This document shows positions 16,901 through 19,334 of a stretch of DNA of 64,000 bases, in pieces. The stretch comes from Yuukianura sp. NJ FZ-2021. Its lineage: Eukaryota. The stretch is from assembly GCA_046563655.1 (NCBI GenBank), contig CM102285.1, positions 13,640,001 to 13,704,000 on the forward strand. The letters are read 5' to 3'. Every line of letters starts with the position of its first letter. Position 1 is the first letter of the stretch. A program made the translations under genes and the position numbers. The notes under the pieces are model-generated. The model did not search any database. It was not told the DNA's origin and saw only the letters and a list, made by a program, of their open reading frames with translations.

Positions 16901-19334
16901 CTGTTTTGTCTAACTTTTAATACGTACGTTTAACACAGGTCCCCGAGGCTATCAAGAAGTGTCAGCGTGCGGGAATCACAGTGAGGATGGTGACTGGTGA
17001 CAACATCAACACTGCTCGGTCCATTGCGCAGAAGTGTGGCATCATCCGCCCTGGAGATGGCTTTTTAGTCATGGAAGGCAAAGACTTCAACCTCCAAATC
17101 CGGGATGCCACGGGCGAAATCAAGCAAGATCTCATCGACAAAGTTTGGCCGAAGCTGCGTGTGCTGGCACGCTCCTCGCCCACTGACAAATACAACCTGG
17201 TTAAGGGCATCATCGACTCCAAGGCAAGTTTGATTAATGATTGGTCCAATTATTTACGGGATTTAATGTTTTTATAATGCATTTAAGATTTTAAGTTGTG
17301 CGTATTTGATTACTTCCCACAGGTCAGTGCCAATCGCGAAGTGGTGGCTGTGACTGGCGATGGAACAAATGACGGGCCAGCTCTCAAGAAGGCTGACGTG
17401 GGATTCGCTATGGTAACCTTTTTAGAACAGCCTAACCTAACTTTATTTAACTCAGGCATTGGTAACGTGTGACATTTGATTTTGTTTTAAGGGGATTGCT
17501 GGGACGGACGTGGCCAAAGAAGCCTCTGACATCATTCTGACCGATGACAACTTCACGAGCATCGTCAAGGCTGTGCTGTGGGGTCGCAATGTTTACGACA
17601 GCATTGCCAAGTTTCTCCAGTTCCAACTGACTGTTAACGTGGTAGCCGTTGTGGTTGCTTTCATCGGCGCTTGCGCAGTCGACAGCACTCCGCTCAAGGT
17701 ACTCCATTTAGTACCTTGGTGACGTCAAGGTCACTCGTGCATGATGACGAACTTTTGCTTGGTACTGATCTCTTTATTTCTTTTTATAGGCTGTCCAAAT
17801 GCTATGGGTGAACCTGATCATGGACACACTTGTAAGATTGAATTGAAAATGTAACCTTTTTGAGTAGTAAGTACAATAACTTAAGCTTTTTTTGCAGGCT
17901 TCTTTGGCTCTGGCGACAGAACTGCCCACTCCTGATCTCCTTCTGCGCAAGCCCTATGGCCGCACCAAGGCGCTCATTTCTCGCACCATGGCAAAGAACA
18001 TCCTCGGCCAAGCCTTTTACCAGCTCATCGTCATCTTCGTACTCCTGTTCAAAGGTTAGCACTTTTCCAAGGCAAAAGCATCACTGTCACTGACTTGTAA
18101 CCATTCCTCAGGTCACCGCCTCTTTGACATTGACGACGGCTCAGCACTTGATGTACCCTCGGCCCACTTCACCATGATCTTCAACGCCTTCGTCATGATG
18201 ACTCTGTTCAATGAAATCAACGCTCGCAAAATCCATGGACAAAGGAACGTGTTCCGAGGGATCTTCGGAAATCCAATTTACTACTGCATTTGGGTCCTCA
18301 CTTTCATAGCACAGGTTCACAGCCTAACCTAAACTAAGTTGAAATTTTAACCTAACCTTCTCAATTTTTGGGATTTTCCTATGATACAGGTAATTATTGT
18401 GCAGTTTGGTGGTCTGGCGTTCTCCACGTCTCCGCTGCACTTCGAACAGTGGATGTGGTGCCTCGTATTTGGCATGGGAACGCTGTTTTGGTTCCAAATC
18501 GTCACCACCATTCCTACCCGCAAACTTACCAACTTCTTAGGGTTAGTTGCACTGGTTCCTAACCAAGTATTATAGCAACTCCAATCTTTGCAGCATCTTG
18601 GCTATAACTTTTGGCAAATATTTTGAACTAGATCTCTGTGCCGTAAGAAGAAAGACCAAAACAGCGAAACCAGCGTCCGAGCGGACGAAGACAAGGAAGA
18701 AGACCAGGTCTGAATTCCTTGGAATCGCAGAATACTTCGTTTACATACGACTTAACGAGGTCAGTTTTTGATTTTATAAATTATACTCTATACCAAATTC
18801 TTAAATCAGCTAAATGGCTTTTTTTTTGCTTCAGATTTATCTCTAGTCGAAAACTAAATTGTGCTCAAAATTGATTCATCGCGTCTCTACTCTTTCTCCT
18901 TACTAAATTGGAAAAACTGCTGCAACCAATTTATATTGCTGCTTCGTTAATCTAAAACTGTAATTACTAAGCACCAATAAACTGATCACGACACTCTAAT
19001 TCTCGATATGGATTAAGCGCTTGTGCATGTCGCTTTTTTAATTTTTGTAAAACTGCTTCGAATTTAAACCTAGAATTATCCGGAATTATCCTGAATTACC
19101 GGAATATCTATAATGCTTGGTGACTTTAGGTTGAAATTCTTTGACCTATGACTTGACTGTACCTTGTGCCTGGTTTTGTTTGGTTTTAATAGTGTTATAT
19201 TAACTACTTCACTTTCATAATTATAATTCGGATTTTAGTATGCATTTTTGTGCAAATTATTGGCGTCAACGGCTATTGGTTAGGTTAACTGCGGCGATGA
19301 ATTCGAGGCGGTGCGGCGATAAAAGGGTTCTTGC
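13932..19334. mobile_element. Putative non-autonomous Mutator-like (Pack-MULE-type) element carrying the PMCA gene
   Basis: TIRs 13932-13976 and 19290-19334 align without gaps at 32/45 and have G...C termini. The identical 9-mer ACGGTTTTA lies immediately outside both ends (13923-13931 and 19335-19343). No transposase inside. Confidence 0.75.
14293..18713 (+). CDS. PMCA: Plasma-membrane Ca2+-transporting ATPase (P2B), multi-exon, with a short C-terminus lacking the calmodulin-binding domain
   Basis: Motifs [46 protein letters not shown] (phosphorylation site), [42 protein letters not shown]. Last exon from 18632 gives [32 protein letters not shown] at 18976. Confidence 0.95.

Follow-up and report, generated by a model that had tools for sequence, protein, structure and literature searches.

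The window, meaning the whole 64,000-nt stretch of DNA that was analysed (C3:13640001-13704000), contains a PMCA (P2B Ca2+-ATPase) gene in a compact unit bounded by transposon-like ends (Table 1). Related sequences were searched in a genome of 98.7 Mb in 22 contigs, in which the 5.4-kb unit is single-copy. The site has a minus-strand archease gene on one side and, on the other, a plus-strand gene whose start is near 20,010, which makes it a divergent promoter region. A near-palindrome with TGACTCA, which we take to be AP-1-like, was noticed in the same promoter region just outside the left direct repeat (13900-13922). To the right of the unit, a spliced gene was found on the plus strand (about 19360-21370); its product presumably resembles the lifeguard/TMBIM membrane proteins, a family linked to calcium leak, and the one ORF tested gave no Pfam match. 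Further along the window, on the minus strand, were a tandem pair of arrestin-domain genes (25574-29067), 73-80% alike in parts, and an ABC transporter gene (33700-40150) with short inverted-repeat elements nearby (34113-35969), a related copy of which was located at 52045-52287.

Table 1. Features of the PMCA unit and its ends (positions in the window).
Feature	Position	Strand	Remarks
Left 9-bp direct repeat (target-site-duplication-like)	13923..13931	.	Identical to 19335-19343
Left inverted arm	13932..13976	+	Start of three tandem ~21-bp units reaching 14012
Copy of a dispersed ~42-bp hairpin repeat	14016..14057	+	Inside the left end
PMCA (P2B Ca2+-ATPase) paralog	14293..18713	+	17 coding exons, 1079 aa, 16 introns
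Exon 16, TM9-TM10	18390..18541	+	
Intron 16, phase 2	18542..18631	+	Orthologous to the intron preceding the CaMBD exon in C8 and L020
Last coding exon	18632..18713	+	Ends in TGA (18711-18713); counterpart, by homology, of the pre-CaMBD linker in C8
Relic of the first CaMBD half, in frame after the stop	18714..18755	+	Closed by TAA at 18753-18755
Candidate 3'-UTR intron (predicted)	18760..18834	+	Near the old splice-site-C donor
Polyadenylation signal AATAAA	18976..18981	+	Sole A[AT]TAAA within 18714-19340
Right inverted arm	19290..19334	-	
Right 9-bp direct repeat	19335..19343	.	

The reading frame of the PMCA gene was unbroken, with zero internal stops, and its introns, whose splice sites were read by coordinate, were 56-99 nt long with one GC-AG intron at 17224. 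TGES, PEGL, DKTGT, KGASE, TGDN and GDGTND were present together with the N/D residues of TM6. Judged by its P-type catalytic motifs, the PMCA TM4/TM6 Ca2+ site, its grouping with PMCAs by sequence and in a tree composed of PMCAs only, and the far weaker SERCA/SPCA-type matches, the gene belongs by descent to the P2B clade but is not a canonical calmodulin-regulated PMCA. The naming of the motifs follows PMC5641333 in part. The earlier note on this DNA had described a short tail after TM10, fully intact catalytic motifs and a polyadenylation signal at 18976, and all three descriptions held: the phase-2 intron after TM10 is followed by a single exon running to the TGA, the motifs stand in the open frame, and the AATAAA is in place. 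The last coding exon specifies a cluster of Cys and basic residues and then an acidic stretch (D/E in 6 of the final 12 residues). The predicted 3'-UTR intron has the same donor as intron 8, situated 7 nt beyond the position homologous to site C, and a strong, pyrimidine-rich acceptor at 18834.

Exactly one other strong PMCA match was detected in the genome, on contig C8, and exon 16 likewise had two genome matches only, the window gene and C8. The C8 gene encodes a canonical pump of 1210 aa, with an exon for the calmodulin-binding domain (CaMBD) that is followed, at distances of about 3.2 and 9.4 kb, by two alternative last exons. The window PMCA and C8 were 80% identical over 1045 codons, and 15 of 16 introns were common to both in place and phase; one of these is the phase-2 intron after TM10. 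Because C8 has this intron at an equal place and phase, the choice of the last exon of the window gene is fixed, and the alignment to the paralog thus bears out the last splice junction. An intron in TM6 (17832-17897), missing from C8 and from L020, the best locus of a metagenome scan, is a probable intron gain in the duplicate. A separate observation concerned the 3' part of the paralog: between C8 (L012, about 1830-3024) and L020 (about 5150-6356), pS was 0.22-0.27 over the last approximately 250 core codons and 0.49-0.80 elsewhere, and the synonymous conservation over those last codons was lost in the window copy (pS 0.70-0.77). The low pS near the C8 3' end suggests an overlapping signal at the RNA level, for instance a structure for splicing or editing close to site C, or else an antisense gene.

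Among the matches listed, the best 120 of 1027, the closest named relatives of the pump were the PMCAs of Folsomia, Orchesella and Allacma (77, 78 and 67% on exon 2), which makes the animal probably a springtail; a brachiopod protein at 59% was the top one by summed score. The CaMBD motif was retained in 111 of the 111 listed matches that were longer than the query and reached TM10, many of them isoforms of the same genes, which makes the loss of the domain unusual among arthropod PMCAs. No ortholog of the tail-less copy was found in two protein searches, in a search of representative sequences (best 150 of 329 matches) or in the metagenome scan (14 loci, 25 of 64 parts covered); L020 and the protein P0002 were both of the C8 type. 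The representative matches were mostly gene-caller fragments, so that missing tails there carry no meaning. Among ten matches with seemingly short or odd tails, one was a 708-aa fish 'PMCA1-like' model, one cluster was a cestode protein, two bore a generic P-type label and the rest were unnamed. The PMCA-like proteins P0181, P0173, P0191 and P0211, one of which is a fish gene model, had short or degenerate tails after TM10, possibly parallel losses or annotation artefacts.

In a tree of 19 protein rows, all PMCAs picked from the listed matches with L020 added (LG+G4, no mixture model), the window copy was sister to C8 plus L020 (100/100 and 97/97), within springtail sequences. The tree ruled out a horizontal origin from outside springtails. 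The end branch of the window copy was 0.27 long as against 0.11 from the split to C8, about 2.5 times longer, and such a long branch could be misplaced. The divergence between the window PMCA and C8 was 0.148 in dN and 1.62 in dS (dN/dS about 0.09, an average over two branches with dS near saturation). The pS of the window copy was 0.66 to C8, a little below the 0.74 to L020; with synonymous sites this close to saturation, the split from the species of L020 may have come only shortly after the duplication.

The 1052 core codons contained no stop or frameshift and the 16 splice sites were canonical. Neutral divergence of 0.09-0.2 per site, a depth like that of the element's ends, would be expected to leave about 10-22 stops where none was seen, so that selection appears to have continued after the loss of the tail. 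An alignment of 15 reference PMCAs has 517 invariant columns; of these, the window copy had 15 substituted, none of them in a catalytic motif, and 12 missing, all within the CaMBD. As C8 had changed only 4 such columns and L020 7, relaxation as well as retention is indicated. As read from its sequence, the window copy is an old paralog of the springtail lineage under purifying selection.

PF12424 had a single match in the genome, on C8, and none in the window gene. When splicing was enumerated with one or two introns, using donors in the TM10 exon or the last exon and any AG up to 21,400, none of the 2231 combinations had a positive CaMBD profile score (best -16, compared with 62.9 for C8 and 8.5 for the lowest training segment). 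A rescue of the CaMBD by alternative splicing, including splicing into the downstream gene, was thereby ruled out. Because PF12424 occurs only on C8 and all splice forms scored negative, the predicted protein is truly without a CaMBD, as the earlier note had stated. The site-C alternative last exons and the PDZ-binding end of a canonical PMCA, both of which C8 has, were not traceable in the window either.

The same note had found no recognisable CaMBD-like segment, and on this point it has to be corrected. The frame after the stop reads IPWNRRILRLHTT (18714-18752), collinear with ILWIRGLTRLQTQ of C8, and agreed with C8 at 25 of 39 nt, the best of 127,922 window positions (next 22). At the protein level the segment ranked second of 127,918, both by BLOSUM62 and by profile, and the residues I, W, R, R, L and T were kept (6 of 13). 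The segment had no Pfam match, and its profile score, 7.1, fell short of the training minimum of 15.3, so its decay is too advanced for it to count as a domain.

A leaky TGA, read through so that a fraction of the protein with the half-site keeps some calmodulin response, would fit the in-frame position of the relic, its six kept residues and a pN of 0.34, lower than the synonymous value of 0.66; C20W, which comprises just the N-terminal half of the human domain, is described as binding calmodulin tightly (PMC8835232). Such a use of the relic is nevertheless very improbable, as the L that is invariant in 26 of 26 reference segments has become P, the G/S column is R, the frameshift swapped the basic residues ahead of the site for acidic ones, and the relic scores below every real domain. 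The pN is also compatible with neutral decay on one lineage, and the base after the TGA is A, whereas strong read-through contexts have C after the stop.

The last six codons of the last coding exon, up to and including the stop, are frameshifted with respect to C8: they matched it at 12 of 18 nt once the register was moved by one base and at 4 of 18 in frame, and the six codons preceding them matched in frame (11 of 18 nt). The shifted register points to a 1-bp loss and a 1-bp gain, with a nonsense change in the stretch that is out of frame. In a global DNA alignment to C8, the last coding exon as a whole scored modestly better than shuffled sequences, 6 of 500 of which reached its value, with the signal in its 3' part. 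The two last exons of C8 could not be traced in 18762-19334 at the protein or the DNA level (173 of 200 and 187 of 200 shuffles as high). Since the relic decayed in place while the last exons left no trace, the loss of the CaMBD seems to have had two parts. The first half was probably lost via small mutations, namely the indel pair and the nonsense change, not at the edge of the element, and the two last exons may never have come along when the gene was duplicated or captured. Capture, which the earlier note had proposed as the cause of the truncation, is thus at most half right: the first half lies within the element, where it decayed, and the missing last exons are the part that may fit.

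The 9-bp repeat was the sole 9-mer common to both flank ranges searched. The inverted arms, in register inside this perfect repeat, were identical at 32 of 45 positions, with only 8 identical in the outer 17; the 45-nt length was picked after the arms were seen. This match ranked first among the 11,577 direct-repeat pairs in the window, the next best having 26, and the best arm match among 5,806 direct-repeat pairs in 40 kb of control sequence was 25. No further copies of the arm motif were found elsewhere in the genome, which rules out a general promoter motif or a dispersed repeat, and the arms did not match the three MULE loci of the genome, whose defined TIRs differ. Target-site duplications of 8-11 bp are given as typical for MULEs in PMC6446971. 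With no other arm copy and no match to a MULE locus, the ends can be called no more than MULE-like. Considered as a Pack-MULE or Pack-TIR, the unit has a target-site duplication of fitting length (9/9 identical, in register), terminal inverted repeats and a captured host sequence with its parent elsewhere (the C8 paralog, old, dS 1.6), and its ends belong to no identifiable MULE/TIR family of the genome.

Other repeats were recorded alongside. Two related MULE elements (L059:3303-6380 and L060:3242-6432), 74% identical inside and with 477-aa open frames, had near-perfect TIRs of 267-291 bp with internal tandem repeats and no obvious target-site duplication in their flanks. The hairpin repeat inside the left end, which we take to resemble a Helitron 3' end, had 116 genomic matches to its 16-mer core at no more than one mismatch; its copies had diverse flanks, and of 20 aligned, one ends in CTAGT.

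The divergence of the arms was 29% (0.36 per pair, CI 0.18-0.67), and as this is lower than the 1.6 between the paralogs, the duplication predates the present insertion. The divergence of the CaMBD relic was about 0.45 on one lineage (CI 0.2-0.94), and its decay probably began before the insertion, the samples being small and the intervals of relic and arms overlapping. It might be supposed that the copy was functional for long and is now silent or redundant in dosage only, owing to recent pseudogenisation after the insertion. This is quite unlikely, because the core codons and splice sites have remained intact despite the divergence reached by the arms.

Calmodulin autoinhibition is the defining control of animal PMCAs. 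In mammals, the CaMBD is described as binding the pump body and inhibiting it at rest, and PMCA3-deltaCter, which lacks it, is called constitutively active (PMC9546857). Human PMCA4 minus its last 120 residues (ct120) is referred to as 'a very active pump' with no PDZ binding (PMC8835232). Because the window protein ends where the equivalent point of the ct120 truncation lies, calmodulin-independent activity would be its most likely state. By this analogy we lean, with some reserve, towards the window PMCA being a calmodulin-independent, always-on Ca2+ pump beside the regulated C8 copy. The deregulated pump of the earlier note may therefore be regarded as a fair inference for a protein without the whole CaMBD and the PDZ tail.

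The route to such a pump could have comprised three steps. The duplication, within a springtail lineage, would probably have left out the far-downstream last exons, with the second CaMBD half and the PDZ motif. The remaining half would then have decayed by the -1/+1 indel pair, the nonsense change and further substitutions, among them L>P next to the anchor Trp, and a later move would have brought the 5.4-kb unit into the gap between two genes of divergent orientation. As no tail would dock on the catalytic core, activity should be high at resting Ca2+, and with no PDZ motif the pump should not be tied to signalling microdomains. An always-on pump would suit an ion-transporting epithelium that exports or sequesters Ca2+ in bulk, which is a reasonable guess. 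Cuticle mineralisation, which had been suggested earlier, gained no support, as the relatives are springtails, and to our knowledge springtails are not known for a calcified cuticle. A literature search returned nothing on point on springtail calcium storage.

Counting against the always-on reading, some human C-terminal truncations were reportedly held in the ER (Zvaritch et al. 1995), and the tail of the window PMCA ends in an exposed acidic stretch similar to theirs. The tail-less pump could accordingly be active on internal membranes, either retained in the ER or filling the calcium granules of gut or excretory cells, as a calmodulin-independent enzyme like the vacuolar and acidocalcisomal P2B pumps and no plasma-membrane exporter. 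The loss of the PDZ tail and the acidic C-terminus agree with this, as do the mineral granules of the springtail midgut and an ER-retention signal reported for the PMCA4 C-terminus. P2B pumps on vacuoles and acidocalcisomes are described for fungi and protozoa (PMC6884021). An internal location is still rather unlikely in view of the high activity ascribed to the ct120 truncation (PMC8835232).

It is also possible that the classical brake was lost and another input restrains the pump, through the basic amphipathic Cys stretch after TM10, acidic lipids or a partner protein. Clusters similar to this Cys-plus-basic one were seen after TM10 in several divergent PMCA fragments, and trypanosome pumps without a recognisable CaMBD are reported as still stimulated by calmodulin (PMC6884021). 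The stretch is, however, short and far below CaMBD profile scores, and a substitute brake seems hardly probable.

Taking the pump as always on, the origin of the locus allows a further and more doubtful step: the PMCA, complete and by then brake-less already, might have been brought to the divergent promoter region by a DNA transposon, which would have given the springtail lineage a second, always-on bulk pump, a Pmc1-like enzyme re-evolved from the regulated one. Since the cargo is far older than the ends, the PMCA unit may even have arrived from another springtail lineage, although its pS to C8 is a little lower than that to L020. If this reading were true, each step of the brake loss would still be legible in the DNA. 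The brake-less PMCA forms known to us are constructs, cleavage products and protist and fungal pumps. If expressed, the window gene would be a natural experiment on the use and destination of an unregulated, tail-less PMCA, with the regulated paralog as a built-in control, and a rare full-length, long-selected enzyme gene within a Pack-TIR-like unit of an animal. In the open-access literature, we found no paper on a natural, selected brake-less animal PMCA gene and no report of a natural animal combination of a brake-less pump with a Pack-TIR-like unit.

Compared with the canonical animal PMCAs (C8, Orchesella, Allacma and Folsomia), the window gene shares the catalytic core (80% to C8), 15 introns and the position in the tree. 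It differs from them in having no CaMBD, site-C last exons or PDZ motif, in one extra intron, in its faster evolution and in being a compact 5.4-kb unit between inverted arms. Like PMCA4b-ct120 and PMCA3-deltaCter it ends before the CaMBD (PMC8835232, PMC9546857), but these are laboratory constructs, whereas the window pump is encoded by a natural, apparently selected gene. The mammalian 'a' variants at site C are described as also being without the second CaMBD half and the PDZ end and as having weaker autoinhibition (PMC8835232); they keep a working first half within the same gene, whereas the window protein is without the first half too, and the change is fixed in a gene of its own. Fungal Pmc1 and the trypanosomatid TbPMC1, TbPMC2 and Tca1 are P2B pumps, some without a recognisable CaMBD and some on storage organelles (PMC6884021). 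In contrast to these distant lineages, the window gene descends from a CaMBD-bearing arthropod PMCA whose relic is visible.

As regards the ends, the unit resembles the animal Pack-TIRs, and Ssk-FB4 of Drosophila in particular, in its intron-bearing host gene, inverted ends, 9-bp duplications and lost 3' end of the parent (PMC8277862). Ssk-FB4 is described as young and multicopy, its TIRs measuring ~700 bp and belonging to a known family (Tan et al. 2021, PMC8277862), whereas the window unit occurs once, has 45-bp arms without a match at other loci and carries a cargo whose divergence from the paralog far exceeds that between the arms. Each ingredient has a precedent, in truncated pumps and in Pack-TIRs such as Ssk-FB4 (PMC8277862).
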